Part shown: positions 4,839-59,786 of the stretch, piece by piece
Layout: the number at the start of each line of letters is the position of its first letter
Position numbering within the stretch: the first letter of the stretch is position 1
Source: a virus
Lineage: Duplodnaviria > Heunggongvirae > Uroviricota > Caudoviricetes
Direction: 5' to 3' (one strand)
Length of the DNA: 64,000 nt
IMG/VR virus record: IMGVR_UViG_3300024345_000775
Coordinates: 25,144 to 89,143 of that record
Position numbers and translations under genes: made by a program
Notes under the pieces: model-generated
The model's input: only the letters and a program-made list of their open reading frames with translations
The model's database searches: none
Told to the model about the DNA's origin: nothing

Positions 4839-5262
4839 CCTCTATAACGGCTTTTTTAAGTTCATGCCTATACAGAGGAATAGGTTTGCCAGCACCTCTG
4901 AACTTTACAGAAACAGAAGTATCCCCAAACCAACCACTGGTTCCATCTACACAAGGACCAACAGTTTCAACAATACCAGATTTGTCCTGATATACACCAT
5001 TGTTCCAATGATTCCAAGTGATTTTCTTGCCAACAAGGGCAGCTCTAAGAGCACCTAAAGTCCAACCAATATTTCTACCAGTAACTTCAGGAGTTCTTCT
5101 ACCAGCTTCTATTACTCTAGTAGCAGGTATTTGAGGTCTTACCTCAGGACTAGAAGATGTTACAGTAAACATATCCTGTCCTTTTTGTGTTTTTTGACTT
5201 CTCTGATATGCCAGTAAGTCTTCAACACTATTAAATGTTATTTCAGTATATTTAACTTCCAT
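4825..5262 (-). CDS. hypothetical protein
   Basis: 145-aa ORF overlapping neighbours by a few nt. Confidence 0.4.
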   Translation of the reverse strand: MEVKYTEITFNSVEDLLAYQRSQKTQKGQDMFTVTSSSPEVRPQIPATRVIEAGRRTPEVTGRNIGWTLGALRAALVGKKITWNHWNNGVYQDKSGIVETVGPCVDGTSGWFGDTSVSVKFRGAGKPIPLYRHELKKAVIEDAVD

Positions 5263-8656: not shown

Positions 8657-9184
8657 TTATAAAATACTGTCTATGATTCCTAACTCCAAAGCTTCCTCTG
8701 CATAGAGAAATCTGTCAGTGTTAGTTTCAATAAGTTCCAATAGTTTTTCTGAAGAGTAATTTGATATTAAGTTTTTGATATGAGTATTAGTTATTTCTAA
8801 ACTTTTATACTTATTTTTTATATCTATTGAACTACCTTCTGGATTCCAATGAATATCATGAACCATAAAAGTAGTTTTAGGAGTAGTATACCTTTCTCCT
8901 TTAGTACAGCTTAGAGCTATATAACAAGCCATGCTTTCAACTCTACCTGTACAATAAGCCTTCACAACTCTACCTTCTTTTTTGATTTGTTCTATTGTAT
9001 CAATAATAGCAAGAGAAACATCACAAGTTCCACCGCCACTGCAAATAAACAATGTAATACTCTCATTATCAGGTAGTTCTCTATGAAGACTAATCAATTT
9101 AAGGATTGCTTCTATTGCTTTTTCCTCATCAATTTCCTCTGGAATAACAACTAATCCTTTTTCTTTTAGTAATTCTTTAATCAT
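8657..9184 (-). CDS. ClpP-like serine protease (S14 family)
   Basis: Pattern LFICSGGGTCDVSLAIIDTI ... GRVESMACYI ... MVHDIHW resembles ClpP Ser/His/Asp region. Confidence 0.55.
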   Translation of the reverse strand: MIKELLKEKGLVVIPEEIDEEKAIEAILKLISLHRELPDNESITLFICSGGGTCDVSLAIIDTIEQIKKEGRVVKAYCTGRVESMACYIALSCTKGERYTTPKTTFMVHDIHWNPEGSSIDIKNKYKSLEITNTHIKNLISNYSSEKLLELIETNTDRFLYAEEALELGIIDSIL

Positions 9185-10039: not shown

Positions 10040-10660
10040 TTAAATTATCTTTATAATTATGTGTGTCCATTGATTCAGACCACCATATGGGCAGTCCATT
10101 AAGACAATTGATTCCTGGTCAAGAGCATTTCTAAAGTATTCTTCACATTCCTCATCTGTTTTATTATCTAAAACACCATCAGAAATATTTGAATAATAGT
10201 ACTTTGTTGTCCATGCATCTTTCCAGAAAAAAGGATTACCTACTGTTGGCTTTATATTGATTTGAAGGTCAGGCATATCTTTCAGATATTTCTCACAAAG
10301 AGTAATAAATAACTTTACCCTATGTTCCTTCATCATCTCAGCAAGTGGCTTATCATATGTATTTATATCAGATATAAACAATCCCCATAATACATTGAGT
10401 TTACTTACAAGACTTCTTGCAACAGTAACTAAATAATCTCTTTCACTTTCTCCATCATCAGGGAAATCTACAGTATCCCCCAATTTCAATATATGGGTTT
10501 TCTCAAACTCTTCCTGTTCTTCTGCCCACTCACTTGAACTCTCAGAAGATTCATATTCATCTAGAATAGTCTGAAGAATTATATCATGAGCTTTACCAAC
10601 AGAAAGAGAATGAGAACTACTGGAATTAGTTTCCCAGACACCTATCCTAATTTGTTTCAT
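10040..10660 (-). CDS. TNSSS-motif family protein, subfamily A (paralog 1)
   Basis: N-terminus IRIGVWETNSSSSHSLS shared with 10660-11127 and 13335-13775. Confidence 0.5.
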   Translation of the reverse strand: MKQIRIGVWETNSSSSHSLSVGKAHDIILQTILDEYESSESSSEWAEEQEEFEKTHILKLGDTVDFPDDGESERDYLVTVARSLVSKLNVLWGLFISDINTYDKPLAEMMKEHRVKLFITLCEKYLKDMPDLQINIKPTVGNPFFWKDAWTTKYYYSNISDGVLDNKTDEECEEYFRNALDQESIVLMDCPYGGLNQWTHIIIKII

Positions 10661-20743: not shown

Positions 20744-20941
20744 TCAGTCTATATCTAAATTATTTTCTTTTACCAATCTTCTTGCTATCATAAAACATAT
20801 GTTTTTAGGAATACTAATATGATTAGCAGAAGGTTTAGTATAAATGAAATGGTCTCCTTTCTTTCTGTCTAAGGTATAACCATTTTTAAGTAATATCCTT
20901 TCAAAGTCTCGAAATGATATGGATTTAGTTAGTACACTCAA
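20744..20941 (-). CDS. hicA: HicA-like (YcfA family) mRNA interferase toxin homolog
   Basis: 65 aa; FERILLKNGYTLDRKKGDHFIYTKP...ISIPKN matches the HicA consensus (GSHxxF..P, then PxH block). Confidence 0.55.
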   Translation of the reverse strand: MSVLTKSISFRDFERILLKNGYTLDRKKGDHFIYTKPSANHISIPKNICFMIARRLVKENNLDID

Positions 20942-21416
20942 GTGTTTCCAGAATTAAGTTCAATGCAGTTCCTATCATTTCATCTATGTTTTCATTTCTG
21001 GAATTACATACACTACATCTAACTGTATTCTGAATACCTTCACATTTAACACTAATCCAAACTGTACCATTAGGAACCTTACTATTACCACCAGTTTGAC
21101 CTACATACCCTGTAATTCCAACTCCTACATCTGTATTGTAAAGGTTTCTAATTGAACTAGCCATTTCTTGAGCTACTTCAAGACTAACAACATCAAAATT
21201 CTCAATTGTTTTAGGATTTACCCATAAGATTTTCTCTTTAATCTCATTAGTATAGGACACAACACCACCTTTGAGATATTGGGAAGCTCCTTCAACTCTT
21301 GCTAAAGCATTAGATATACCTCCTGCCGTACAAGATTCAGCTGTTGCTATAGTCCAGGACTTACTTTTAAGGAATTCTCCTATTCTTTTTGCAGTTAATA
21401 AATCAGCACCTTTCAT
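20925..21416 (-). CDS. pncC: CinA C-terminal domain / NMN amidohydrolase PncC
   Basis: TIATAESCTAGGISNALARVEGASQYLKGGVVSYTNEIK ... ITGYVGQTGG matches CinA_C (TAESCTGG, GGVVSYS, TGIAGP blocks). Confidence 0.7.
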   Translation of the reverse strand: MKGADLLTAKRIGEFLKSKSWTIATAESCTAGGISNALARVEGASQYLKGGVVSYTNEIKEKILWVNPKTIENFDVVSLEVAQEMASSIRNLYNTDVGVGITGYVGQTGGNSKVPNGTVWISVKCEGIQNTVRCSVCNSRNENIDEMIGTALNLILETLECTN

Positions 21417-27750: not shown

Positions 27751-27755
27751 AATTG

Positions 27756-27815
27756 TAGCACCTATGGGACTTGAACCCACACAGCCATCACTGGCCACTA
27801 GATTTTCTTACTACT
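27756..27815 (-). ncRNA. tRNA-like 3' fragment (T-arm + acceptor 3' strand, possible long variable arm), no 5' partner found
   Basis: Minus-strand reads ...GGCCAGTGATGGCTGTGTGGGTTCAAGTCCCATAGGTGCTA: canonical T-loop TTCAAGT with 5-bp stem, 7-nt acceptor-like 3' strand. No complementary 5' acceptor strand or D-arm within 250 nt. Confidence 0.35.
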
Positions 27816-28340
27816 CTATGTTTCCATAGCCAAATAACTAGAACGATTGCATGTTCACCTAGCTCGTTTTGCATGGCTGTAAACTAATTATTTGTTGTAG
27901 TCTGGACTCTATCTTAACCTTATTAGAATCTTGCAAGATGTAAATTAGATGTTCACTGACCTAGCGGTTTACCCAGAATGCATATGGTTCTCTAATTTAC
28001 AATTCTAACTTAGGTTCCTCCTGTATAGTCTCTACACACTGTCTATTATCTCAATTCTTTCAGGATGACATATCATCAGTCTCTTCTTCCATTTTATTGA
28101 GACCTATCATTGAGTTTTAACATTGGCTCGGTATTAACATATTAGAAAAAGAAAAACTCAGCGAGGATGCAGGATTGTCCAGAGATTCGTGAAATCTTCT
28201 TCAAAACTTACACTTTCTTTTTTATTCTAACTTAGTCTTCACCGAATTAGGGAGGTTCTACTCTATAAGTTTCTTTATAAGCACTCAAATTATAGATAAA
28301 GTCTAGCGCGTCTGCCAATTTCGCCAAGGTGCCCTGTAAC

Positions 28341-35330: not shown

Positions 35331-36147
35331 ATAATAGAAGGGCAGAGAGAAACTAATCCCTCTACCCTATAAATTGTTATCCCAGAGCCTATGCAGAAGC
35401 ATAACTGCAAACCCCAGTAGCACATCTCTGCACTGTCACTTTACAGAAGAAATAAAGCTCAACACAGCCTTACTTTTTAATATGTCTGGAGATATACTTA
35501 TAACAATTGGCACTTTACTATACAAACTTCACTATTGCCAATAGTGAGTTACCTTAACTTTCTCATAGCCATACATTATTTGCTTACCCCGCTAAAATAT
35601 ATTAGGTACTTTTGGGCTATGGATTTTTTTCTTTTGGCAGGAACTACAAGGCTACTTGTTCTTTTAAACTCTACCAGGACTCCTGGGCACACCATCCTTA
35701 GTCCCCTTTTGTAATAGGGAATTACTAATTCAAGATACACCAAATAAGTATTAAAATTTCCTGTTAGGAGAGCACAGTATTCATATATTTTTTCTTTACC
35801 CTATGACTGGGTGCAGTCCCTATGGACAGGCTCATGTATGCTTGTTTCTTTACAGAAAGGCTATGAGCCAGCAATATTTCAATGAACTTTTAGCAACTTT
35901 AAAGGCAAATAACCTGGTCCAGCTTCTCTGCTCAAAGCTCCTGTTATAGGGCTATAGAACAGATACTGCTCATTGATTATTTCACAAACTTGAAGTAGGG
36001 AATCATATCTTGGAGATTGTATGCAATCTCCTACATGTAGTTCCATACCTTCTTCAGTTTCAGCTGCAAAAGTATACTGCCTTAGCCGTGAAGCTTGTTG
36101 TTCAGGTACTGGTTGCTGAACAAATACTACCTTTATTGTTATCATTG

Positions 36148-36651
36148 CTATTCTTTTGGCAACTGCCAAATCTCAATAGTAATATCAAGGTTTTCAAATG
36201 CTGCTAGAACCATAGAATGTACTACATTCCAGTTAGCACCACCTCTACAAGAACTCATGAGATAAGGCATTGCAATTGTTCTTATTTTGTTTTCTTCACA
36301 GATTTTTGCCAATTTAACTAGGCACATCCACAAAGCATCATAACTTGTAGGACATCCTATACTCAAGAAAGAATGCTCTTTTTGGTATAAGTCTTGAGCA
36401 CACAAATTTGCAATGTAAGGATAGTTTGGTTCTTCCTGTCCTTCTACACATTGTTCATGCTCAACAACCTGTACAACACCTAGTTTAAGGCCACCTTGTT
36501 GCATAAGAACAGTGTATTGTTCTTGTACATAAGGCCACTTGTGTGCAATAGCAGCAGCAACTCCACTCCCCATTACACCAGCATCATTTACTTGGTGCAT
36601 GATTATCTGTGCTTCTGAATCTAATAGATTTCCTGTCCGATTAACTACAGT
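36148..36651 (-). CDS. Macro domain protein (ADP-ribose binding/processing)
   Basis: IMHQVNDAGVMGSGVAAAIAHKWP matches macro-domain NAxN...GxGVaxAI block. Start chosen at MTVVNRTG to reduce overlap with nadD. Confidence 0.7.
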   Translation of the reverse strand, partial: TVVNRTGNLLDSEAQIIMHQVNDAGVMGSGVAAAIAHKWPYVQEQYTVLMQQGGLKLGVVQVVEHEQCVEGQEEPNYPYIANLCAQDLYQKEHSFLSIGCPTSYDALWMCLVKLAKICEENKIRTIAMPYLMSSCRGGANWNVVHSMVLAAFENLDITIEIWQLPKE

Positions 36652-37273
36652 CATATAGATGATGTTTTTGAATATAATCAGCAACATATTTAGGAACAAG
36701 TGTTTTCCATTCTGGATTACACTCATCAATACATTGTCTGATATAGGTTGAACTTATATTAGAAGGAATTTCTGACATTTTAGTAATACTTCTAGCTAGA
36801 GTTAATCCCTCAGGAACTTTCATTTCAACTCCTTCTCTAGGTATTACTACAATATCAAACTGATAAAGTATGTCTTTAAAACATGCCCATTTAGTTATTT
36901 GTGCAAGACAATCTGCACCTATAGCTAAATCAATGGAATAATCAGAATACTTAAGAGATAGATGCTTTAGGAAATAGTAAGTATATTGAAATAATGGCGA
37001 TGCATTACTATCAAAGATGACTTCTACTCTTTCATCTCCTATTACTCTTTTTATAGAAGTTGCAGCCATTTCAAATCTGTCTGCAAAACACACATTAAAC
37101 TCCTTAAAAGGACTTGCAAAGCTTGGAGCTACAATTACCTTATTATAATAGTACATACCATTGGTATCTCTTCTATCTAAGAGCATTTGTATTGCTTCTA
37201 TATGTCCATTATGTATAGGATTGAAAGAACCTCCATATAAGACAGCTCTTCCTCTTATAGTTCTGATTTCCAT
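36641..37273 (-). CDS. nadD: nicotinate(-amide) mononucleotide adenylyltransferase NadD-like
   Basis: GGSFNPIHNGH (HxGH nucleotidyltransferase motif of NadD) and C-terminal ISSTYIR (SxT-IR motif). Confidence 0.8.
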   Translation of the reverse strand: MEIRTIRGRAVLYGGSFNPIHNGHIEAIQMLLDRRDTNGMYYYNKVIVAPSFASPFKEFNVCFADRFEMAATSIKRVIGDERVEVIFDSNASPLFQYTYYFLKHLSLKYSDYSIDLAIGADCLAQITKWACFKDILYQFDIVVIPREGVEMKVPEGLTLARSITKMSEIPSNISSTYIRQCIDECNPEWKTLVPKYVADYIQKHHLYDCS

Positions 37274-37842
37274 TGTTTTAAATCCTCTAAATTAACTCTT
37301 CTAAATATCTCTCCATCTGGAGATGTAATTTCAGGAAGCCAAGTTCTGAACAATATCTTAGCATTTAACTCTTCAGCAAAATGTTCAATTGCCCTCAAAC
37401 TAATATCAGTTTCAGTAACATAGTTAGCTCTATCTTCTTGTTTTAAAAGAACATATAGTCTATTACTACATTCTGAAATCCTCAATCTAGCTCTTGTATT
37501 GTGTATAAGTTCTTGTAATGCATCCCAATCTTTTTTACCTTTTGGACAAATGGAAATTCCAGTTATACAAGGTAAGGTATGTTTTTTCAAGTAATAGAGT
37601 AACTCATAACCTGAAGTATAAACATAGATATTCTTAGCAAAAGAACTTATTACATTTACAATCCCATAAAGATTATCTAGAAGAAAAGGTTCACCACCTG
37701 TTAAACAAACAGTTTCCACTGTAGACAACTCCTCTTTTGTTATAAAAGGAATACTGTCTACAGTGTAGTTGTTGTTACAGCACATAGGACACTGATTAGT
37801 GCACTTGTCTGTAAGAAATAGATGAGCTACTTTTGGGTTCAT
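37255..37842 (-). CDS. small radical SAM enzyme (paralog C)
   Basis: HLFLTDKCTNQCPMCCNNN (CX3CX2C) and LTGGEPFL; shares LTDKC-x3-C block with rSAM 12404-13351. 195 aa. Confidence 0.65.
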   Translation of the reverse strand: MNPKVAHLFLTDKCTNQCPMCCNNNYTVDSIPFITKEELSTVETVCLTGGEPFLLDNLYGIVNVISSFAKNIYVYTSGYELLYYLKKHTLPCITGISICPKGKKDWDALQELIHNTRARLRISECSNRLYVLLKQEDRANYVTETDISLRAIEHFAEELNAKILFRTWLPEITSPDGEIFRRVNLEDLKQWKSEL

Positions 37843-38315
37843 GGTACAAAACTCCTAATTAGTTCATAATGTCCAAAAGCCCAATCATACTCACCTGCTT
37901 TAGCTACTGGTATCCACATAACTTCATCTACCTCATCTGGTTCACAATGCTCTTTAGATAACATCTTCACAGCAGGTGAATCAGAACCAAGATATGCAGT
38001 AAATTTTACTGTTAAGTTTTGTCTACCTTCAGGTACATCATCTATACCTGCAAATTGAAGTTTATCAGCAGGTACAAGAACTCCTGTTTCCTCATAAACT
38101 TCTCTTATAATAGCTGTTTTGAGGGTTTCATCATAATCTAGGTATCCACAAGGACAAACCCATTTACCAACATTATCAGGACAACCTGGTCCTCTCTTAT
38201 TTGCAAGAACTAACCAATTTCCTTGACTATCTTTGGTGAAGATGAAACCTGCAACTGCTACAGACCTACTTATCCAGTAGGTTTTTCCTTCATGTTCTAC
38301 TGGAAAATTTCTCAT
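37839..38315 (-). CDS. Nudix hydrolase
   Basis: Complete Nudix box GYLDYDETLKTAIIREVYEETGV (Gx5Ex7REVxEExGV). Confidence 0.8.
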   Translation of the reverse strand: MRNFPVEHEGKTYWISRSVAVAGFIFTKDSQGNWLVLANKRGPGCPDNVGKWVCPCGYLDYDETLKTAIIREVYEETGVLVPADKLQFAGIDDVPEGRQNLTVKFTAYLGSDSPAVKMLSKEHCEPDEVDEVMWIPVAKAGEYDWAFGHYELIRSFVP

Positions 38316-39493
38316 AGACCTAATTTATAAATAGCAGTTTTTACTTCCTCATCTGCTCCCATTACTTTACCAATGTCATCAGAAATCTTTACACAATTTA
38401 CCCATTCTTGTCTTGGGTTCATTCTGCAATGCATTAACTTCATGACAATATTTCTAGGCTGTACACCTTCAATATCATTGGTAAGATTAGTGCCTATACC
38501 AAAGGAAGCTTTTATCTTTCCTTTACAGTATTCAGCAATTTGAGCAGCTTTTGGAAAATCCAAAGCATTAGAGAACACTATAGTTTTTGTGAGTGGGTTG
38601 ATACCTAACTCATCATATCTAACTAGTGCTCTCTCAACAAAGTCTTTCTCATCTCCAGAATCTTGTCTTATACCATCAAACAATTTTGCATGTTGTAAAG
38701 AAAAATTCTTGAAAAAGACTTTAGAAGTATAGGTATCAGTTAAAGCAATACCAAGATTGCCATCATAAACCTTTACCCAGTTTTTATATGCCATGTAGTT
38801 AGCCTCATTGTAACCATACATAGCACCATGAAACATTACCCATTCATGTGCTACAGTTCCAATAGGTTTCATGTCATATTTCATTGCAAGATGTACATTT
38901 GAAGTACCGACGCAGGATGTAGAGTTCTTACAAACAGCTACAACTGTATCTTGTACTTCATAACTATATCTTCTTCTGGTACCAAACTCAGAGAATTTAA
39001 ATCCTGCTTCTTCAGCAATCTTACATTTCTCTTCAGTTTTTCTACATATCTCTTGATACTGGTCAACAGTTAGAGATTTACCATAGATTTTATAGTATGT
39101 TTCTGCAACTGTATAGAGAATAGGTACCTCATACAGAGTAACTTTATAAAGTTTATCTGTAACTTCAATCTTCAACTCACCATCTTTCTCAAGGGAAAGT
39201 TTAATTAAGTTTGGATTAAAATAGAAAGACTCTAACCATTCCCAATACCACTCAGGAATGTATGGTATGTTTTGTACACACCATTGTCTCTCTGCATTAG
39301 ACAACATTCTTTCTGCCAGTCTATGTAACTCTTGTTGCAAAGCGGTTACAAATTTAGCAGTATACTCTGTTTTACCTCTATCACAGAAAACAAATGTACC
39401 CTCTGCTTCAGGAAATAACTTCATATAAGCATAGCTCATGCTAAACTTATAGAGGTCATTATCCAACATACTTGCAGGGTTTATTGCTACCAT
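38312..39493 (-). CDS. pncB: type II phosphoribosyltransferase, nicotinate PRTase (PncB)-like / possibly NAMPT-like
   Basis: N-terminus MLDNDLYKFSMSYAYMKLFP...FVFCDR parallels PncB LDTDAYKLHM...FRCR; 393 aa. Confidence 0.65.
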   Translation of the reverse strand: MVAINPASMLDNDLYKFSMSYAYMKLFPEAEGTFVFCDRGKTEYTAKFVTALQQELHRLAERMLSNAERQWCVQNIPYIPEWYWEWLESFYFNPNLIKLSLEKDGELKIEVTDKLYKVTLYEVPILYTVAETYYKIYGKSLTVDQYQEICRKTEEKCKIAEEAGFKFSEFGTRRRYSYEVQDTVVAVCKNSTSCVGTSNVHLAMKYDMKPIGTVAHEWVMFHGAMYGYNEANYMAYKNWVKVYDGNLGIALTDTYTSKVFFKNFSLQHAKLFDGIRQDSGDEKDFVERALVRYDELGINPLTKTIVFSNALDFPKAAQIAEYCKGKIKASFGIGTNLTNDIEGVQPRNIVMKLMHCRMNPRQEWVNCVKISDDIGKVMGADEEVKTAIYKLGL

Positions 39494-40371
39494 AATATCA
39501 CAACCTTTTCAATTTCATGAGAATATATCCCATTTGTTGTAAACAATTTTGTTACATTACTTAGAATGTATTGCCAATTCTCTGTATTATCTTCTATAAG
39601 TTTATTCTCACAGTGGGAAGCATATACATAAATTGGACAATTCACTTTTTCCCTGATATTTGCAATAGTCTTACAGATGGTACCACCTGAGGATAATATG
39701 TCATCAATAATCAGAACAGGAATACCTGTCTCCAATGTATCTACTCCATATAGCTCCTGGTCTTGCAAAGTGCCAGTTTTCCAGTCTCTTGATTTGTTTC
39801 CTATTACCTTTCTAAAAGGCTTTAAGATTTCAAGAGAACTGTATCTATCATAAGCACCTCTATCAGGAAATACAATTGTAACCTTACTGAATTTATCATC
39901 AAACATCCCACTATGTATAACATCAAGGGCTTCTTTCAATGATACATCAGTTGGTATTTTACACATCCTATCAACTAGAGCATCAGTTACTTTTGAATGA
40001 GTATCAAAAACTGTTACACTTTCAAACTGTAAACTGTTAATAACATTGCAGAAATACTTAAGGGTAAAGACATCTCCTCTTTCTTCTACTCTGTCCATTC
40101 TAGCATTAGGAACATACAACATTTCCAGAGATATAGTACAGTCTTGATAATTATCTCTGAGATAACCACAAACAAATATCAATGTGACTAATTCTTCATC
40201 ACAATGATACTTCCATACTATATGAAAAGCATTTACACCAAAATCTGGCATATTTATCTTTTGAGTACCATCCTGGAAATGTTCTACCTTTACAGGTATT
40301 TTGTTGACGAAAAGCATTGAATAATTATGTAGATTATAAACATTAAAACAACTAAAGTTCCAGTAATCCAC
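39487..40371 (-). CDS. ribose-phosphate pyrophosphokinase (PRPP synthetase)-like
   Basis: PRPP/ribose-binding loop VLIIDDILSSGGT; 294 aa; 7-nt overlap with the PRTase gene. Confidence 0.6.
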   Translation of the reverse strand: MDYWNFSCFNVYNLHNYSMLFVNKIPVKVEHFQDGTQKINMPDFGVNAFHIVWKYHCDEELVTLIFVCGYLRDNYQDCTISLEMLYVPNARMDRVEERGDVFTLKYFCNVINSLQFESVTVFDTHSKVTDALVDRMCKIPTDVSLKEALDVIHSGMFDDKFSKVTIVFPDRGAYDRYSSLEILKPFRKVIGNKSRDWKTGTLQDQELYGVDTLETGIPVLIIDDILSSGGTICKTIANIREKVNCPIYVYASHCENKLIEDNTENWQYILSNVTKLFTTNGIYSHEIEKVVILW

Positions 40372-40499
40372 AAAGGACTAAATACCCACCACCAATTCCA
40401 ATCAATTTTCTCTGTCACCTTAGCAATAAAGAAAGCAATTGTTAAAATAAGTGGAAGATTGAAACTTATAGTTATATTTGTTTTAGCATTTTCACTCAT
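40290..40499 (-). CDS. small membrane protein
   Basis: 69 aa, two hydrophobic helices. Confidence 0.3.
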   Translation of the reverse strand: MSENAKTNITISFNLPLILTIAFFIAKVTEKIDWNWWWVFSPLWITGTLVVLMFIIYIIIQCFSSTKYL

Positions 40500-40574
40500 A
40501 AGAAAAGAAACATTGAAGCGAAACCAACTGTTACACCTGCAATAAAACTTGCCATCTCAACAATATTGTCCATA

Positions 40575-41126
40575 TCAAATAATGTTTATGTGGCAGCTTC
40601 TCATTGTCTCAATAGCTGCCTCTTTCTTTTCAGGAGTTACACCTGCTGTCAGTCCTTCATAGACATACACTTCTGAATTAGGGTATAATGTCTTGAGAAC
40701 AAGAGCATTGGTAACAACACAAATATCAGTACAGAATCCTACTAAATAGAACTCTCTTATTTCTGACTTATCTGAACCAATTATTTGTTCCCAATTGTTA
40801 TAACCAAATGTATGTTTGTTTATAAACTTTTTAGGAACTTGACAATTGTCAAGAGCTTCCATAATATCATCTCTTAGACACCAACCAGCAGTTTCACATA
40901 TACAATGTAAAACAGGTAAATGTTTACCTTCTACTGTGACATCATAAGATTGCCTATAATGAGTATCTCTTGTAGCAAGAATATAGTCAAAACCTTTTTC
41001 AGAAATAAGCTCAGGTAATGTTTTAGCAATGTCTTTTGCAATTGCAATAGACTCTTTATTTGCCAAAACACCACCTTGTGCACAGAAATCATTTTGACAA
41101 TCAATCAAAATAAGAACCTTTCTCAT
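40575..41126 (-). CDS. pncA: nicotinamidase PncA (isochorismatase family)
   Basis: N-terminus KVLILIDCQNDFCAQGG matches PncA LLLVDLQNDFCAGG with catalytic Asp; later Cys in ICVVTNA. Confidence 0.75.
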   Translation of the reverse strand: MRKVLILIDCQNDFCAQGGVLANKESIAIAKDIAKTLPELISEKGFDYILATRDTHYRQSYDVTVEGKHLPVLHCICETAGWCLRDDIMEALDNCQVPKKFINKHTFGYNNWEQIIGSDKSEIREFYLVGFCTDICVVTNALVLKTLYPNSEVYVYEGLTAGVTPEKKEAAIETMRSCHINII

Positions 41127-41968
41127 TGGAATCTTGGGTCTTTAGCCATACCTAGAGACATTATCTCTACATTGGTAGGCTTTTCAGTTAAGTCAAACAA
41201 CATTTCAATTTCAGGCCAGAAGCAAGGCATACTTGCCATTCTATAAATCTTGAACTTGTTTGCTTCAAACTTTTTGTTAATCTTTTCAATTACTTCAGCA
41301 CTTCCTTCACCTTCTCTGATATAGGTGTCTATATCTTTGTAAGTGATTCCAAGTGTTTGTTCATCAGATGTACCAACAAGTCCATCTTCAGGAACTTTCT
41401 CAACAAGTTCAGCAGGAAGTCCAAGTTCATGTCCAATAGCTTTTACTTCTTGTACAGTAAGCATACATAATGGTGATACATCTCCTGCACTATCTCCATC
41501 AACAGTTGCATAACCAACCCAGTCTTCAGATAAGTTAGAAGTGTTAATCAATCTGCCATTATTTGCTTGTGCTACATATCTTAACATAGTCATCCTAATT
41601 CTAGGAGCTAAGTTAATTCTTGCTTGCTCAGTTACTTCATTAAGAGTATTGTGTACATTTGCCATCTTATATCTATCCTGGAATTCTTCAAAGATAGTCC
41701 CAATAGGAATAGACAGGTTCTTGATTCCAAGAGTTTCACACACTTTCTGTGCTATATTGAAATCATGTTGAACACCATTTGGCAACAATACACCTATGAC
41801 TCTTTCAGCACCTAAAGCTTTTACACAGAGTGCTGCTGCAATAGTAGAGTCTTTACCTCCTGATATACCTATTACAGCATTACATCCTGGTCCATTTTGT
41901 TCAAACCAAGATTGTAAATACTTTATAAGAGCTTCAGTTGTTTCTTTAGCTAAAAACCTATATTTCAT
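41123..41968 (-). CDS. nadE: NH3-dependent NAD+ synthetase NadE
   Basis: PP-loop GISGGKDSTIAAAL (SGGxDS), 281 aa. Confidence 0.8.
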   Translation of the reverse strand: MKYRFLAKETTEALIKYLQSWFEQNGPGCNAVIGISGGKDSTIAAALCVKALGAERVIGVLLPNGVQHDFNIAQKVCETLGIKNLSIPIGTIFEEFQDRYKMANVHNTLNEVTEQARINLAPRIRMTMLRYVAQANNGRLINTSNLSEDWVGYATVDGDSAGDVSPLCMLTVQEVKAIGHELGLPAELVEKVPEDGLVGTSDEQTLGITYKDIDTYIREGEGSAEVIEKINKKFEANKFKIYRMASMPCFWPEIEMLFDLTEKPTNVEIMSLGMAKDPRFQ

Positions 41969-42032
41969 AAGTCTATATTGTTAGTTTATATTTATTTACC
42001 CACTCATTAAAGTGAGTGGGTCGGTAACAAGA

Positions 42033-42629: not shown

Positions 42630-43525
42630 ACATCTTTTTGCCAGATTGGCTCTTTGTGAAAAGAACTTTTTGTTATTTTTATAGGATTTCCCAAAATTAA
42701 ATTCTTTGAGAAACTCTCAGGAGGATACAACCAGCATTTGATTTTATTTTGTTGTTTAAGTAAGTCATAGAAATGTGCTCCAAAAGCTATTTTAGACCAA
42801 TTTAAATTTTTACTTAACAAATACTCAAATTCTTCTTGTGTATATTTGCAAACACTTCTACCAGAAGGCATAAGTGGTAATAGAACAAAATACAATATAT
42901 CATTTACATATGGATATACTTCACTGACAAATTTGTCAACAGAAGCTTTATCTGAAATTATGTAATGAATGTTAATGTTAATGTCTATACCTTTTAAATT
43001 ATCAACAGCTTTCTTCCAAGTCTTATTGATATTTTCATTCCAAGTGTTTGCACTTACAGCTACACCACCACAGTACTTCTCTGTTGCTTCCAACAATTCT
43101 TTATTGTCTTCAGAAGCTAGAGTTATACCATTGGTAGTGTAGTTAGGTACTATTCCTAAGTTATATATAGTTTGTAAGAAAGGAATGAATTCAGGATGAA
43201 TTGTTGGCTCACCTTCACTCCCTATTGCTATTTGAAAAGGTTTGGAATTTTCATCCATCTCTCCAAAGAACTTTTTTGCTTTCTCACATACATCCTTATA
43301 GAATACACCTGTATGTAATGCATTAGTATAACAGAAAGGACATTCTAGATTACACTTAGTACCAAGACTTACATCATAAAACTCAGAACAGATAGGTGGT
43401 AACTCTTGAGCTACTCCTTGTCCTAATCTTACTGTTTTTAGATTTTGCCATATAGCATTATAGTTATATTCTGAAAAATTCCTCTGTTTAATACCAAAGT
43501 GAGTAAAATCTTTCATAATTAACAA
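42626..43525 (-). CDS. radical SAM enzyme (paralog B)
   Basis: DVSLGTKCNLECPFCYTN (CX3CX2C) and GSEGEP; alignable with rSAM A over the cluster region. Confidence 0.65.
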   Translation of the reverse strand: MLIMKDFTHFGIKQRNFSEYNYNAIWQNLKTVRLGQGVAQELPPICSEFYDVSLGTKCNLECPFCYTNALHTGVFYKDVCEKAKKFFGEMDENSKPFQIAIGSEGEPTIHPEFIPFLQTIYNLGIVPNYTTNGITLASEDNKELLEATEKYCGGVAVSANTWNENINKTWKKAVDNLKGIDININIHYIISDKASVDKFVSEVYPYVNDILYFVLLPLMPSGRSVCKYTQEEFEYLLSKNLNWSKIAFGAHFYDLLKQQNKIKCWLYPPESFSKNLILGNPIKITKSSFHKEPIWQKDV

Positions 43526-43962
43526 CTGTAACTAGATACAACAGACAGATTATTTCTAATCCAATCAATTGAATGTCTTCTATTATGGTCAATTCTAATT
43601 TGTAAGAACAAACCATTTTTCTTATCAACATTACCCCTGAAATGTCTTTTAACATCATGAGCAATATCTTTATAAGAAAGTGTAGTGACTTCACATTCTG
43701 CTGCATCACCTGAAGACTCATCAAGTCCTAACTTGTATAAAGCTTCATCATATTTATCCCAGTTATTTTTACCTCTACTACAGTATTGGTTCCAAAGCTC
43801 CTCTCTCTTTTTATCATCATTATCCCAAATTTCCTGTAATTTCTTAGCAACAATAGTACTAGTAAATTCTTGTTCAGGATTTGCAAATGCTACAAAGAGT
43901 TCAGATGAACTATTGGTTATTATGTCAGATATACTTTGAATAGGTATAATGAATGTAATCAT
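43519..43962 (-). CDS. TNSSS-motif family protein, subfamily B (paralog 5)
   Basis: MITFIIPIQSISDIITNSSSELFVAF; start placed at this Met, not the longer tracked ORF. Confidence 0.5.
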   Translation of the reverse strand: MITFIIPIQSISDIITNSSSELFVAFANPEQEFTSTIVAKKLQEIWDNDDKKREELWNQYCSRGKNNWDKYDEALYKLGLDESSGDAAECEVTTLSYKDIAHDVKRHFRGNVDKKNGLFLQIRIDHNRRHSIDWIRNNLSVVSSYSC

Positions 43963-44555
43963 CCTAAATGATACCTTTCTGCTACTTCCATTAACTTTTC
44001 TTGATAATCCCAATTAGGATTCTCATCCTTAGAGAACAAAAGAATTCTGTCACCATTCTTTTCTCTTAACATAGAAAGTCCAGAATCAGTTATTTGAGGA
44101 TACCACCACATATTAAGAGAACCTCTGAATTGTTCCATATGGTGTGGTAAAAACTTCTTATAACAATCATCTGCATCTTTGTAGAAATCAGAGAATTTTA
44201 CATCAAGATTCCAATTCTTTTTAAGGAACTTAGTTATTGCAGATTTATAAGTCTTAGCTCTCTTTTTAGCATACTCAATGGGGTTTCCATCTTCTTCTCT
44301 ATAGTATGTACCATAATCCTCAATATCTGAATAAGCCATACTATAATCAAAGTAGGTTTCAACCTCTTCATCATCTGCATCTCTAAGGAGAACTGGGTCA
44401 TTATACTCAGTTGACCAATTAGGATAAATACTATCAAGAATTGCTATTACTTCTGCAACAGTATTTTTATTGTCAAAAACAAACAGTTCACTAGAACTAT
44501 TAGTAATAACATCAGAAATACTTTGAATATTAAAAACAAATAATGTCTTTTTCAT
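43959..44555 (-). CDS. TNSSS-motif family protein, subfamily B (paralog 4)
   Basis: FVFNIQSISDVITNSSSELFVF. Confidence 0.5.
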   Translation of the reverse strand: MKKTLFVFNIQSISDVITNSSSELFVFDNKNTVAEVIAILDSIYPNWSTEYNDPVLLRDADDEEVETYFDYSMAYSDIEDYGTYYREEDGNPIEYAKKRAKTYKSAITKFLKKNWNLDVKFSDFYKDADDCYKKFLPHHMEQFRGSLNMWWYPQITDSGLSMLREKNGDRILLFSKDENPNWDYQEKLMEVAERYHLG

Positions 44556-45004
44556 TTGTTTAAAAATTCTTGTACAACTTCTGCAACTAATTTGCCATCA
44601 GCATTAGGAAGTGAACCTTTTATTGTTTTGATAATGACACCCATGTTCTTCTTTACAGGCTCAAAACCATCTTGTCCAATTACATCATTGAAACATTTCA
44701 AAATGTCTTCCCTAGTTGCTTCTACTGGTAAAAACTCTTTAAGAACTTTAAGTTGTGCTTCTTCTGCCTCAACTAAATCCATTCTATTAGCCTGTTTAAA
44801 TTGCTCAATAGAATCCTCTCTTTGTTTTACCATTTTCTTGATGATTTGAATTTCTACTTCATCAGTAAATGGTTTATTAACATTTTCTTTCTGAGTTCTC
44901 CATAATAAGAAAGCAGCTTTAATTGCTCTTAAAGCCTCTTTTCTTACATTCTCATGAGACTTCATAGCCTCCATGATAAGTTTATCAATTTGATTATTTA
45001 TCAT
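44552..45004 (-). CDS. YqeY/GatB C-terminal-like domain protein
   Basis: 150 aa; pattern ALRAIKAAF...TDEVEIQIIKKMVKQREDSIEQFKQANRMDLVEAEEAQLKVLKEFLP...ADGKLVAEVVQEFL follows the YqeY/GatB_Yqey consensus. Confidence 0.6.
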   Translation of the reverse strand: MINNQIDKLIMEAMKSHENVRKEALRAIKAAFLLWRTQKENVNKPFTDEVEIQIIKKMVKQREDSIEQFKQANRMDLVEAEEAQLKVLKEFLPVEATREDILKCFNDVIGQDGFEPVKKNMGVIIKTIKGSLPNADGKLVAEVVQEFLNK

Positions 45005-46212
45005 TGCTCTGCTGCTTTAAAATTATATATAGGTTTAATAATATCTACAACATCTACAGTATCTTTGATACACTCCATGATTTCATCCATCGGTTTATAT
45101 ACCATAGGTGCTTCATCAATAGTATCTTTAGTTGCTGTAGTTGTATAAATACCTTTCATTGCTTCAATAAAGTCCTCTTCTTTAAGACTTTCTTTTGCTT
45201 TCTTTCTAGACATAAGTCTACCTGCTCCATGAGGTGCAGAATACAACCAATCAAGATTACCTTTACCTATACAGATAAGAGAACCATCTCTCATGTTAAT
45301 AGGAATAATAAGCTTTTCTCCATTAAGTGCACTCACAGCACCTTTTCTAAGAATCTTATGTGGTAAATCAATATAATTATGAATAGTTGTAAAAGATTTA
45401 TCATGTCCTTCTAAGAAATCAGAAAGAAGATTAGAAAGTCCTAAGAAATCAAGAATTCTAATAGCAATTGCTCTTCTATTACAAGAAGCATATCCTTGAC
45501 ATAATCTCATATCATTAAGATAATCCTCAAGGTCTTTACCTTCAAGATATGCCAATTCAGCATTGAAAGGTGATTGAGTTGCTTTAATTTGTGCAAGAGT
45601 AGCATTGATTTCAGACTGTCTTCCTTGTTCTTTAAGACTGTTAATAATTTCTATAAAATCAGTTCTCTTTGCTTTACAACTCTTTATAGCTTTTTCTTGA
45701 TAATACTTACATACTCTTACACCAAGATTTCTACTACCAGTATGAATTACAAGAAATTTTTCATCATTTTCATTTATATCAACTTCAATAAAATGATTAC
45801 CTCCTCCAAGACTACCAATAGACTTTAAAGCCATATCAGCATCTATAACTTCTTGACATTTAAATTGAGTAAGTGTACTAGGATGATAAAAACTTTTACC
45901 AAGAAACTGTTCATTGATATTGAATCCAGAAGGTATTTCAGTTTTAATGAAATTATCTAGAGCTGCTAAATCAATCTCAATATTACCTAAAGGAACAACC
46001 AACATTCCACATCCTATATCTACTCCAACTGTATTAGGTACAACTCTATCTTTAATACCTATTACAGTACCAATTGTACATCCTGCACCTGCATGACAAT
46101 CAGGCATTATTCTTACAGGACATTCTCCATAAGCATCAGATAAAGACATGTTTTGAATTTGTAACATTGCCTCATCTTCAACTGTTTTTGCATATATTTT
46201 TACATTTTTCAT
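45001..46212 (-). CDS. rtcB: RtcB RNA 3'-phosphate/2',3'-cyclic-phosphate ligase
   Basis: MPDCHAGAGCTIG, GGGNHFIEV and SAPHGAGR, the three RtcB metal/GTP-binding signatures; 403 aa. Confidence 0.85.
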   Translation of the reverse strand: MKNVKIYAKTVEDEAMLQIQNMSLSDAYGECPVRIMPDCHAGAGCTIGTVIGIKDRVVPNTVGVDIGCGMLVVPLGNIEIDLAALDNFIKTEIPSGFNINEQFLGKSFYHPSTLTQFKCQEVIDADMALKSIGSLGGGNHFIEVDINENDEKFLVIHTGSRNLGVRVCKYYQEKAIKSCKAKRTDFIEIINSLKEQGRQSEINATLAQIKATQSPFNAELAYLEGKDLEDYLNDMRLCQGYASCNRRAIAIRILDFLGLSNLLSDFLEGHDKSFTTIHNYIDLPHKILRKGAVSALNGEKLIIPINMRDGSLICIGKGNLDWLYSAPHGAGRLMSRKKAKESLKEEDFIEAMKGIYTTTATKDTIDEAPMVYKPMDEIMECIKDTVDVVDIIKPIYNFKAAEQ

Positions 46213-46735
46213 AAACTTTAGAAAAAGAAGGTGGCAAGACTAGTTTCACAACCCATCTTGCCTAGAGTCACCGCGCAAACAAAAACACAATATTAACCAT
46301 TGAATCACATAAGAAGTATATTTTAGGTGCTACTTAACACCAGATGTTGAGCATAACTTTCCCAGTGAAGGGATGCCTATGCTCGCAGAAGGTTTTAACT
46401 TTTAAACCTCCAAACTAGGATGCCGTTTCAAGTGTTTGCCCAAACACAGTAAAATAAAGTATATAAATACCTATGGTTATAGACTGCCATACTAGGTGCT
46501 CTGAGTCTCCATACTTTTATTCTAGCTTATTATGTAGTTTGTCTTAACCTAGTGAGCAAGGCTCTCTGACAAATAGCTTTTGCCTATTCTGTATCACTAC
46601 AATGACCTCCTTAATTGTGGACTTATATCTATATAGATACCATCTTTTTTATATAGGGATGGAGAGACCTACTCTTGAGGAAAAACAAAAACTCTGCTAG
46701 GAAAAATCGTAGAAAAACTAACAGAGAAACAAAAA

Positions 46736-46780
46736 CCTCAAGGACCAGTGGACCTACTGGGAGTCGAACCCAGGTCCAAC
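46736..46780 (-). ncRNA. tRNA-like minihelix (T-arm + acceptor-like stem) followed by CUGGUCC motif; candidate tRNA-mimic / Y-RNA-like module
   Basis: Minus strand reads GGACCUGGGUUCGACUCCCAGUAGGUCCACUGGUCCUUGAGG. Canonical T-loop UUCGACU on CUGGG/CCCAG stem stacks on GGACC/GGUCC; no 5' acceptor strand or D-arm nearby. Confidence 0.35.
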
Positions 46781-47293
46781 AATATCAACTAATAGGAAAC
46801 TTTACATGCTTAGTTCTTTTTAATGTGGTTACTTTACCCACAGGGGCTAATTGGTTTGGCAACTAGCCACTCCACCACTTCATTTATACTTTGAAGAAAG
46901 TTAAATGTGTCTTTCCACAATGTCAATTATTTTCTGTTTCCAGGTATAATTACCCAGGTTATGCCATAATAAGCTAGTTTACAGTTAAGTAAGCCTAAGC
47001 TTAGGCAACCAATCTAACAGGTCTTCTTCTGCTAGCATTTATTTTTTGTACCGTAATTTAGAGCAGTACTCTCTTTGCATGTTCCCATTAATCATATAAT
47101 GCTGTCAAAACCAAATAGGCCCTAATAAGAAAGAGGATGAGGTATTAACTCCACCCTCTCCTATTGTAAAAAGGGGAGAAAAAGAGCAAAGTATTTTTCA
47201 GTTATTGGCAAACCATGACGCTAATTATAGAAGTAACTTTACACTGACATCCCCTATGGGAAAAGCAGGAGAAATAATATAGAGTGTTTAAGG

Positions 47294-47367
47294 ATTTCTT
47301 TAGTGGAATTGAACCACCGACACTTTGCTTAGGAGGCAAATGCTCTATCCAGCTGAGCTAAAAGAAG
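47294..47367 (-). tRNA. tRNA-Arg (CCT)
   Basis: D-arm GCTCAGCTGGATAGAGC, anticodon arm TTTGC-CTCCTAA-GCAAA, T-arm GGTGGTTCAATTCCACT; acceptor has one terminal mismatch. Confidence 0.75.
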
Positions 47368-47432
47368 TAACTCCATATTTGACAACCTGCTTTATAGTAA
47401 AAAGGAGGGAGAGAGGTAGAAAGGGATATAAA

Positions 47433-47506
47433 AGTTTCATCCTTGAGTTGAACAAGGTACCCCAAAATTACCAATTTTTGTGCTCTACCAAATGAGCTAA
47501 TAAAAC
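47433..47506 (-). tRNA. tRNA with atypical anticodon arm (8-nt loop ATTGGTAA, or Thr GGT / Pro TGG under alternative pairing)
   Basis: Acceptor GTTTTAT/ATGAAAC, D-arm GCTCATTTGGTAGAGC, T-arm CCTTGTTCAACTCAAGG all canonical. Perfect stem CAAAA/TTTTG encloses 8 nt. Confidence 0.55.
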
Positions 47507-47539
47507 GAAGTAACCCTCTCTGTGACAACCCTCCTTAGA

Positions 47540-48244
47540 TTAACCAAAAGTAATCATAGTATCAGGATATTCCTGGTACCATTCTTTTAATTCTTGAAAC
47601 TCTTCATCTTTTAGAATAACATTATGTTCTTTACATCTTTGTACACAATCTGCTACACTGTAGCAAGGTTTTGCACTATAATCATGTATTCTAAAGATGT
47701 CACATATTCTTCTAGATAGATATTTATCAGCAATTTCTGAACTAGCATCTATGTAAACTTTACCATTCTTATATTTAAGACCCGTTACACTATGCAATTG
47801 TTCAGGTAACAAATTTGCTACATCTTCTAGACAATGACAATTTGTTTCAAGACTTTCAACAAGTAAAGAGTTTAAACCAATGAAGAAATCTCTATACTCT
47901 TGCCAAGTTTTTGTTTGTGCAAGCTTGATTTCTTCAAGTATACTCTTATCAGACCAACCTTTAAGTTCTGATAAAGATTTACATTCAGGATAAGTCTTAT
48001 CTTTCCAATAAGCTCTATTATCATCCTTTTCATAAGATGTAAAATCTTTATTCCATTCCTCTTCAGTTGTTTCTTTATATAATTTTAACAGTAATCTAGC
48101 ACCATCTACTATTCTGTTAAAATATTCTTCCTTTAATTCCTTTTGTTTTTGTTCAAGATAAACATAAAACCATGTATGACATCCCATATTAAAGAAATTT
48201 ATATTCACCAAGTAGAAAAGCATTGAGAGTAATATCCCAATCAT
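47540..48244 (-). CDS. hypothetical protein
   Basis: 234-aa ORF. Confidence 0.45.
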   Translation of the reverse strand: MIGILLSMLFYLVNINFFNMGCHTWFYVYLEQKQKELKEEYFNRIVDGARLLLKLYKETTEEEWNKDFTSYEKDDNRAYWKDKTYPECKSLSELKGWSDKSILEEIKLAQTKTWQEYRDFFIGLNSLLVESLETNCHCLEDVANLLPEQLHSVTGLKYKNGKVYIDASSEIADKYLSRRICDIFRIHDYSAKPCYSVADCVQRCKEHNVILKDEEFQELKEWYQEYPDTMITFG

Positions 48245-59631: not shown

Positions 59632-59715
59632 TGTAGTTTATATACTTTTTAGTAATATAGATTCTGTGAGCACATATCTGTTTTGTTTGTGAGTCTAACC
59701 CCACTCTCACCAAAG

Positions 59716-59786
59716 GAGTATATGAAGGACTTGAACCTCCGACCGCTACATCTCTGTAGTGCTCTACCAACTGAGCTAATATACTC
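59716..59786 (-). ncRNA. tRNA-like RNA lacking an anticodon loop (anticodon arm replaced by 5-bp stem + GAGA tetraloop)
   Basis: Minus strand 5' G-AGTATAT-TA-GCTC-AGTTGGTA-GAGC-A-CTACA-GAGA-TGTAG-CGGTC-GGAGG-TTCAAGT-CCTTC-ATATACT-C 3'. Acceptor, D-arm and T-arm are textbook; region 27-43 is a 14-nt tetraloop hairpin instead of the 17-nt anticodon arm. Confidence 0.5.

Follow-up and report, generated by a model that had tools for sequence, protein, structure and literature searches.

A phage genome recorded in IMG/VR as IMGVR_UViG_3300024345_000775 carries, upstream of a gene for the RNA ligase RtcB, about 1.3 kb of DNA without open reading frames (ORFs), which raises the question of what this region encodes and whether it acts together with the ligase. 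The region lies in a stretch of 64,000 nucleotides (nt) from that record, hereafter the window, in which the minus strand carries all genes in this part. An original prediction had read the region as part of a repair cassette, with two transfer RNAs (tRNAs) and a Y-RNA-like minihelix accompanying RtcB as in the rsr-yrlA-rtcB operon of Salmonella. We find instead that this "non-coding" region is a stable-RNA gene cluster in a large gut phage (169-kb contig) and that the minihelix belongs to a one-piece transfer-messenger RNA (tmRNA). The order on the minus strand, 5' to 3', is tRNA-Thr(GGU), tRNA-Arg(CCU), a tRNA-remnant cassette, the tmRNA, a 533-nt spacer ending in a terminator, and RtcB-YqeY.

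The tmRNA gene

Rfam and ARAGORN both identify a tmRNA in the region. The match to family RF00023 scored 93.2 bits (E 5e-35; gathering score 47) and covered the whole model (1-374 of 374), and the ARAGORN call at 46748-47122 came with a predicted tag peptide. The gene and its parts are:

46746-47122, minus strand: one-piece tmRNA (ssrA), from Rfam RF00023 and ARAGORN
47001-47036, minus strand: tmRNA tag frame, GCU AGC AGA AGA AGA CCU GUU AGA UUG GUU GCC UAA, encoding ASRRRPVRLVA and a stop
46749-46773, minus strand: T-arm, 3' acceptor strand and discriminator of the tmRNA in the Rfam alignment, the minihelix of the original prediction

The acceptor stem comprises 7 bp, formed by GGGCCUA (47122-47116) and UAGGUCC (46756-46750), and its strands lie ~370 nt apart, the 5' strand being upstream of the T-arm and 3' strand. 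It contains the G3:U70 wobble, which is the identity element for alanine, the corresponding column pair 3/372 being G:U in four of four aligned sequences, and the T-arm reads CUGGG-UUCGACU-CCCAG. The discriminator, A46749, is followed by CUG where CCA would stand, so that CCA must be added post-transcriptionally. In pseudoknot 1, GUACUG and CGGUAC are paired in the Rfam alignment at high posterior probability and are invariant in the four sequences (columns 54-59 with 70-75); a second stem of this pseudoknot, AGAG/CUCU, was read by eye. Pseudoknot 1 precedes AAAAAAUAAAU-GCU, with the resume codon GCU at 47036-47034. The tag frame has 11 codons and ends in a hydrophobic ClpXP-type C-terminus, LVA in the window phage and LAA in its relatives. 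LAA is the canonical end of a ClpXP degron and LVA a well-known active variant. Bacterial tags, by comparison, are typically neutral or acidic, as against the basic body (RRR..R) of the window tag.

The original prediction described an unpaired T-arm/acceptor minihelix followed by CACUGGUCCUUG. That sequence (~46739-46777) is real, but the minihelix has a pairing partner in the GGGCCUA at 47122-47116 and supplies the 3' half of the tmRNA's tRNA-like domain. CACUGGUCCUUG begins within the acceptor strand and extends into the 3' trailer, and CUGGUCCUUG, which starts after the discriminator, is trailer sequence. A T-arm/acceptor "minihelix" with no evident partner should prompt a search for a tmRNA or an intron-containing tRNA. 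In SRR10838683 the assembly seemed to break at the tmRNA T-arm, but this proved to be an Illumina adapter artefact, and we claim no recombination hotspot there.

We compared the gene with its relatives. The window phage occurs near-unchanged in five other assemblies (L081-L085; 0-1 mismatches over 4.6 kb), one of them a 169-kb contig, and these copies carry no informative variation. Diverged relatives, which came from a protein search and contig look-ups, are L187 (95% RtcB identity), L181 (94%), L182 (91%) and both L180 and L198 (79%). L187, L182 and L180 carry the tmRNA at the same place, at 91-93 bits (two of them scoring 91.1 and 92.8). In an RNAalifold consensus, 12 tmRNA pairs are kept through two-sided changes; these are concentrated in helix 2, where ~7 pairs differ on both sides between the window lineage and L180, and a T-stem C:G pair has become A:U in L180. 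The tag frame is likewise kept, as ASRRRPVRLAA and a stop in L182 and L187 and as ADRRPVRLAA and a stop in L180, where an in-frame 3-nt deletion has removed one Arg codon and Ser has changed to Asp. Since diverged relatives retain the gene with compensatory changes and an in-frame tag codon deletion, the alignment points to purifying selection on both the tmRNA helices and the tag frame. Conserved pairing and a frame ending in LAA or LVA are what would be expected of a working tmRNA and argue against a captured fragment.

That alternative would make the tmRNA a leftover without function, either an attP-type fragment or an ssrA gene picked up from a host through imprecise excision. It has some precedent: the 3' ends of tmRNA genes are well-known sites of integration, ssrA fragments are common in phages (PMC3203893, PMC9004378), and L181 retains only the last ~20 nt of the gene. 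In L181 1-790 (window-equivalent 46766 and upstream) both tRNAs and the tmRNA are gone save for this remnant (CGACUCCCAGUAGGUCCA), and upstream of it lie unrelated AT-rich DNA, two opposite-strand ORFs and then the contig end; this state may reflect loss by deletion or the insertion of an element at the 3' end of the tmRNA. Against capture stand the full length of the window gene, its co-varying helices and a tag frame that survives a codon deletion. Similarity to the tmRNA in 50,697 phage records did not extend beyond ~30-45 nt of T-arm, the best such match being the permuted tmRNA of the crAss-like phage cr130_1, whose tag, DNYNVVDYTHVA, is quite different. In IMG/VR, exact tmRNA patterns gave either no matches or chance matches. 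A 24-nt pattern for the 3' end (T-loop and acceptor strand) was found in six unrelated metagenome-assembled genome (MAG) contigs among 185,579 GTDB species genomes, matches that are uninformative on host or origin. With no close match to the tmRNA, recent capture from a host looks unlikely, and we judge the leftover explanation as a whole to be highly improbable. Even less credence is due to a Y-RNA and Ro60 module, in which the minihelix, UGGUCC and RtcB would reproduce the Salmonella rsr-yrlA-rtcBA arrangement. In its favour, YrlA-type Y RNAs adjoin Ro60 genes in some phages (PMC4201824), and the window does encode a Ro60-like protein, with weak Pfam TROVE/VWA and NCBIfam Rsr matches in addition to those given here:

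17908-19524, minus strand: Ro60/Rsr-like protein (TROVE and vWA), PHROG 850 E 4.5e-30, PDB TROVE-domain protein 9kop E 8e-9

This gene is, however, ~27 kb from the region. The Y_RNA/YrlA models found no match in 46100-47650 at E<=10 with permissive filters, none anywhere in the window at E<=1 and none at E<=10 in 16400-17950 beside the Ro60-like gene; Rfam 15 presumably contains a YrlA model. Searches with all Rfam families over the region, the window and the Ro60 neighbourhood returned tmRNA and tRNA matches only. UGGUCC, which the original prediction likened to the conserved helix of Y RNAs, is part of the 3' trailer; it reads UUGUCC in L182 (~97% identical across the region) and is absent in L180, where the whole trailer differs, and sequence inspection found no complementary strand nearby with which it could form a Ro-binding helix. 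The minihelix is fully explained by a tmRNA, not by a decayed tRNA, and the proposed cassette of the rsr-yrlA-rtcB type is already largely refuted. How the module of the original prediction would look is illustrated by an unrelated metagenome contig (L151, 889-3514), in which RtcB directly follows a Ro60-like gene as in the classical rsr-rtcB arrangement.

tRNA cassettes, spacer and terminator

The ORF-free region, 46213-47539, is 1327 nt long and has no ORF of more than 63 aa on either strand, the longest ORFs overlapping RNA genes. In this the original prediction was right, as it was about tRNA-Arg(CCT) and a second, "atypical" tRNA, which ARAGORN and Rfam identify as tRNA-Thr(GGU). Upstream of the tmRNA the following features are arranged:

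47433-47506, minus strand: tRNA-Thr(GGU), ARAGORN and Rfam RF00005 (48.3 bits, E 7e-9), CCA not encoded
47404-47534, minus strand: cassette 1, duplex GGAGGG...AGAGAGG / CCUCUCU-CCCUCC around tRNA-Thr(GGU)
47292-47367, minus strand: tRNA-Arg(CCU), ARAGORN and Rfam (58.1 bits), C1-A72 mismatch, CCA not encoded
47265-47390, minus strand: cassette 2, duplex GCAGG...AUAUGGAG / CUCUAUAU...CCUGC around tRNA-Arg(CCU)
47173-47254, minus strand: cassette 3, leader ATGTCA-N7-GTTACTTC (47249-47230) and leader-trailer stem, from the fold
47133-47158, minus strand: hairpin GAGGGUGGAG-UUAAUA-CCUCAUCCUC plus a U-rich tract, 10 nt upstream of the tmRNA 5' end, read from sequence

tRNA-Arg(CCU) is conserved in L180, L182 and L187, and tRNA-Thr(GGU) in L182 and L187, its L180 homologue having the anticodon GCU. 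The latter (L180 333-405) has a Thr-like type I body and is called tRNA-Ser by ARAGORN, a possible anticodon shift. Each tRNA is preceded by a leader motif, TTGTCA-N8-GTTACTTC, at 47528-47507 immediately 5' of tRNA-Thr and at 47385-47364 at the 5' edge of tRNA-Arg; with a third at 51384-51363, the window contains three copies where 0.01 would be expected. The copies in this region form the 5' strand of two-part leader-trailer duplexes, each followed by a U run. Across 40 pairs of these stems, aligned with L182 and L180, 96.7% of 120 cells are paired, and six pairs show two-sided changes compared with 0-2 in controls slid by 1-3 columns. Among the changes in L180 are G:C to A:U in cassette 1 (pair counts on alignment A7) and two pairs of helix 4 in cassette 2 (A:U to G:C and U:A to A:U). 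This comparison, over two diverged lineages only, suggests that the leader-trailer pairing is maintained. Cassette 3 encloses just ~45 nt resembling the 5' part of a tRNA (UAGCGUCAUGG...), in which neither ARAGORN nor Rfam called a tRNA; L180 retains its stems, two pairs of which have changed on both sides, and the cassette probably represents either a short structured RNA or a tRNA cassette in decay. The stem of the hairpin before the tmRNA is also maintained through changes in L180, where it reads UUAGGGUGGGG...CCUACCCUAA.

The third leader copy accompanies a 140-nt tRNA-shaped element elsewhere in the window (51298-51437, minus strand), with acceptor GGGGAGA/UCUCCCC, T-arm CCUGG-UUCGAGU-CCAGG, a long extra arm and a folding z of -2.6. 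It is overlapped by a spurious 71-aa ORF and was called by neither ARAGORN nor Rfam; it may represent either a tRNA gene in decay or a tRNA-like RNA not described before.

The tmRNA and RtcB are separated by the spacer with its two conserved parts:

46213-46745, minus strand: untranslated spacer, 533 nt, ~300 nt in L180
46386-46470, minus strand: conserved block of ~85 nt, 78% identical to L180 by blastn with unalignable flanks (alignment A1)
46221-46262, minus strand: intrinsic-terminator-like hairpin of 8 bp, a G-A mismatch, 4 bp and a GUGA tetraloop, followed by the U tract ACCUUCUUUUUC

The spacer has no ORF, no Rfam family at E<=10 and no repeat elsewhere in the window, and its folding z of -1.8 is modest. 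Only the block and the terminator hairpin align with L180. In the block it is sequence rather than structure that is conserved, local hairpins not being maintained in L180, and it may be a promoter or another DNA or RNA signal. The L180 block contains TTTG-N21-TAAGTTTG, which resembles the Bacteroidota promoter consensus; the -7-like element of the window itself is imperfect, and the Bacteroidota-type TANNTTTG is not enriched in the window.

The hairpin at 46262-46233 folds at -16.3 kcal/mol with ACCUUCUUUUUC directly after it, and it is present in five of five relatives (L180, L181, L182, L187 and L198). In L180 and L198 it folds at -18.6 kcal/mol, with a compensatory A:U to G:C change, and is followed by UUUAUUUUUUU. 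Its 15-nt apex does not vary and, among 193 loci, is restricted to this lineage; no unrelated locus contains the terminator core or the block motif. By its hairpin and U tract this element is predicted to be a textbook intrinsic terminator that closes the stable-RNA unit. It ends 8 nt before the RtcB ATG (46212), with 14 nt between the last U run and the ATG. As this leaves no room for a promoter, RtcB-YqeY would be expressed by read-through or from a start inside the spacer.

RtcB, YqeY and their link to the tmRNA

Downstream of the terminator lie two overlapping protein genes, which bear out the gene identifications of the original prediction:

45001-46212, minus strand: RtcB, predicted 3'-phosphate/5'-OH RNA ligase of 403 aa, ORF uninterrupted in this genome
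44552-45004, minus strand: YqeY-family protein of 150 aa with a GatB-tail-like tRNA-binding fold

RtcB matches Pfam PF01139 (E 1.5e-62) and PHROG 1075 (E 1.5e-127). Its MPDCHAG, DIGCG, GGGNHF, HTGSR and HGAGR motifs align with RtcBs of solved structure (2epg, 4dwr, 1uc2) and match the motifs by which the enzymes of T. thermophilus and P. horikoshii bind metal and GMP. The residues concerned are present (the N-terminal Asp and Cys, the Asn-His of GGGNHF, the His of HTGSR and the nucleophilic His of HGAGR), and the active site thus appears intact. No NCBIfam subfamily cut-off was reached that would assign the protein to an RtcB subfamily such as the PrfH-coupled type, and neither RtcA, RtcR nor PrfH was found in the window. 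YqeY matches Pfam PF09424 over the full profile (2-143 of 143; 104 bits, E 1e-29) and PHROG 1460 (E 2e-22); its ORF and the RtcB stop codon overlap by 4 nt, an arrangement indicative of translational coupling to RtcB.

Three relatives have an insert in RtcB between the Gly codon and the Asn codon of the catalytic GGGNHF motif (window-equivalent ~45798-45800), of ~235 nt without an ORF in L187 (~4870-5100) and of ~890 nt with a LAGLIDADG ORF (Pfam 1e-6) in L181 (1745-2636) and L182 (5112-6003). No Rfam group I intron matched the inserts; their group-I-like boundaries (U/...G/) and the LAGLIDADG ORF suggest that they are introns.

How far does the link between tmRNA and RtcB extend? The order tRNAs-tmRNA-spacer-RtcB-YqeY is kept in four genomes with 79-100% RtcB identity, and the adjacency of YqeY and RtcB in L180-L182 and L187, but in no other RtcB or YqeY locus examined. 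Viral and metagenome collections yielded ~160 RtcB loci at 48-65% identity, of which 40 were scanned by ARAGORN and 7 by Rfam, with 5 more checked as context loci; none of those scanned had a tmRNA within 4-6 kb of RtcB. More remote relatives in IMG/VR reached at most 60% identity for RtcB, 48% for YqeY and 27% for the upstream 215-aa protein, none with a tmRNA nearby, and the JGI metagenomes searched via RtcB likewise gave identities of at most 60%. As far as these loci indicate, the tmRNA-RtcB adjacency is confined to this narrow lineage.

These data allow us to propose how the locus works. We consider it likely that a conserved tmRNA/tRNA cluster and RtcB-YqeY are parallel translation-maintenance functions, and the tmRNA and RtcB most likely both act on keeping translation alive without forming an obligate two-part machine. 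The general idea of an RNA- and translation-maintenance neighbourhood in the original prediction holds; its repair/surveillance cassette survives only as a hypothesis in another form, made up of tRNAs, tmRNA and RtcB. The RNAs would be transcribed as one precursor, from which host RNase P would excise them, probably together with a duplex-specific nuclease (RNase III or similar) acting at the bracketing stems. Because none of the RNAs encodes CCA, a host enzyme would add it. Charged with alanine and working with host SmpB, the tmRNA would free ribosomes stalled on broken mRNAs during infection and tag the unfinished peptides for proteolysis, while the tRNAs would supplement decoding. RtcB, made through terminator read-through, would reseal RNAs with 2',3'-cyclic-phosphate and 5'-OH ends (tRNA, possibly tmRNA or rRNA), with YqeY as a tRNA-binding accessory.

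Several observations weigh against this proposal. The covariation of the tmRNA is based on just two diverged lineages, and the central part of the molecule (pseudoknots 2-4) fits the Rfam model at low posterior probability, with an overall accuracy of 0.54. Many pairs of this part are non-canonical in the Rfam alignment; RNAalifold, a method blind to pseudoknots, gave several co-varying hairpins there. The tag, with four Arg, is unusually basic and to our knowledge atypical among proteolysis tags. L181 lacks the tRNAs and the tmRNA yet retains the spacer and RtcB, which means that at least one genome or assembly can do without the tmRNA. A scan for sigma-70 promoters and terminators was not above chance, and its loop limit made it miss the terminator at 46221-46262; the host probably uses neither Shine-Dalgarno nor sigma-70-type signals, and no promoter could be assigned.

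A closer integration of the same parts would make the locus a rescue-repair cassette, in which YqeY-guided RtcB reseals phage tRNAs and tmRNA cut by host anticodon nucleases or ribosome-dependent toxins, and the spacer and terminator tie RtcB dosage to transcription of its RNA substrates. In E. coli, RtcB ligated SsrA more often than any other target and elongation slowed when rtcB was lost (PMC9650030), and the YqeY/GatB-tail domain is a tRNA-binding module (PMC1865053, PMC2811023). The gene order kept in four genomes, the 8-14 nt from terminator to ATG that leave no space for a separate RtcB promoter, and other window genes linked to RNA repair (HAD_SAK_2, Ro60-like) point the same way. Yet no tmRNA accompanies RtcB in the scanned loci, YqeY stands next to RtcB in this lineage only, L181 has RtcB-YqeY without tmRNA or tRNAs, and the tight packing of phage genes makes adjacency alone weak evidence. 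We therefore regard this cassette as unlikely, and a real substrate-enzyme coupling of RtcB with tRNA or tmRNA as plausible but improbable. It is similarly doubtful that the whole block is one co-regulated "rescue and repair" unit, combining its own rescue RNA, with a phage-specific Arg-rich tag, and a YqeY-targeted ligase that reseals these tRNA-like RNAs after cleavage by host defence nucleases, in which the spacer elements and terminator would set the ligase level by substrate transcription; if true, it would be the first viral genomic evidence that SsrA is a substrate of RtcB, for which E. coli has been the only reported case. The spacer might alternatively be an undescribed structured non-coding RNA, or a leader (promoter in 46386-46470, ~190-nt leader, terminator) that attenuates RtcB transcription when a signal calls for it. 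Two conserved islands in an otherwise fast-diverging spacer, a terminator apex with its GUGA tetraloop that is invariant though its flanks differ, and the promoter-like element of L180 would fit such a role. They are offset by the lack of an Rfam match, the modest folding z, a part between block and terminator that is unalignable and 60 nt shorter in L180, candidate hairpins of the block that L180 does not maintain, and the imperfect -7 element with no enrichment of its motif in the window; no alternative antiterminator pairing was identified. On balance we think a regulatory or structured RNA in the spacer quite improbable.

Comparison with known systems places the locus among kinds already described, phage tmRNAs and phage RtcBs with tRNAs, as a rare but already known type of translation-support module. 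Of 18,146 phage genomes, 402 (~2%) encode a complete tmRNA (PMC9004378), and huge phages carry a tmRNA together with SmpB (PMC7162821). The window phage shares with the mycobacteriophage, huge-phage and two-piece Melnitz examples (PMC9004378, PMC7162821, PMC1475703) a complete tmRNA, a large genome, many tRNA genes and a presumed role in keeping ribosomes free during infection. Its tmRNA is one-piece, however, and not permuted as in Melnitz and cr130_1, has an Arg-rich tag and lies directly upstream of RtcB, and no SmpB was seen among the ORFs of the window. With bacterial SsrA/SmpB systems it shares G3:U70, pseudoknot 1 before the resume codon, GCU (Ala), an LAA/LVA tag end and a full RF00023 match, whereas it is virus-encoded, does not encode CCA and fits the family model poorly in the pseudoknot 2-4 region.

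On the RtcB side, catalytic motifs and the conceptual link between ligation and rescue are shared with E. coli RtcBA, where SsrA is a major RtcB substrate (PMC9650030), and with PrfH-RtcB2 rescue and repair (PMC9304027), but the link to tmRNA is here physical adjacency only, in one phage lineage. Salmonella rsr-yrlA-rtcBA and YrlA Y RNAs (PMC4201824) have RtcB, a Ro60-like TROVE protein and tRNA-like RNA elements in common with the window, in which RtcB and the Ro60-like gene are 27 kb apart, no Y RNA matches and the tRNA-like element is a tmRNA. The window RtcB has ~70% nucleotide identity to the RtcB genes of K1 mycobacteriophages, SPO1-like and phiCD211-like phages. These too combine RtcB and tRNAs, read as a counter to tRNA-cleaving defence, and in K1 phages proposed as protection from host tRNA cleavage (PMC3203893). 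A tmRNA gene beside RtcB is not reported for them, and the tmRNA connection of K1 is an attP site rather than a gene.

Genome context and significance

All genes of the window, including its 14 tRNA/tmRNA genes, are on one strand, and its GC content is 33%. Shine-Dalgarno motifs are depleted upstream of starts (3 of 75 ORFs, compared with 13% at random positions), the named bacterial relatives of RtcB are from Bacteroidales and Prevotella, and one relative is from a gut metagenome. Together these data suggest a Bacteroidota-like gut host.

Other window genes may bear on the same functions. A ClpP-like protease (8657-9184, minus strand; Pfam 3e-28, below curated cut-offs), for which cellular ClpP models beat head-maturation protease models, sits among replication genes, and a protein with a HAD_SAK_2 "Swiss Army Knife RNA repair" domain lies at 11108-11869 (minus strand; E 3e-26); tmRNA tagging and RNA repair are functions to which the two could be related. 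The RtcB operon is followed directly downstream by a dense set of NAD-related genes at ~36100-42000 (minus strand), NMNAT-like, NUDIX, NAPRTase, PRPP-transferase-like, isochorismatase/nicotinamidase and NAD synthase, with a weak Macro match; NADAR and CinA occur elsewhere in the window (14772-15335 and 20925-21416). This set resembles the NAD+ reconstitution pathways with which phages counter host defence, and the gene set of the window looks like a counter-defence and host-maintenance arm.

Five paralogues on the minus strand (43959-44555, 43519-43962, 10040-10660, 10660-11121 and 13335-13775) share an invariant N-terminal TNSSS, within GVWETNSSSxH in three of the five, and match only PHROG 28997, of unknown function. 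Three adjoin radical-SAM genes, and two directly follow YqeY in a tightly packed gene string. Among the RNA genes, tRNA-Leu(UAA) at 27755-28333 (minus strand) has a 492-nt intron in the anticodon after U34, the classical site of tRNA-Leu group I introns, with U as the last base of the 5' exon and G as that of the intron. It was found only by "aragorn -i", being missed by default ARAGORN and Rfam, and accounts for the 542-nt "non-coding" gap at 27799-28340. A tRNA at 59715-59785 (minus strand; Rfam 53.4 bits) was called "tRNA-???" by ARAGORN with a two-base anticodon (ag), implying an unusual anticodon loop. The 1.84 kb at 55512-57351 contains no coding-strand ORF of 55 aa or more and, besides tRNA-Met at 55704-55780, no other Rfam match at E<=1.

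In place of a speculation about Y RNAs, the locus now has a firm annotation, that of a gut phage with a conserved tmRNA that is unrelated in sequence to phage reference tmRNAs and carries a basic tag. The features of moderate interest are this sequence-orphan conserved tmRNA with its Arg-rich tag, its direct juxtaposition with RtcB-YqeY, and the stem-bracketed tRNA cassettes. Phage tmRNAs are rare. The locus offers a natural test case for the bundling of ribosome rescue with RNA repair against translation-targeting defences, and for whether tmRNA is a physiological substrate of RtcB outside E. coli.

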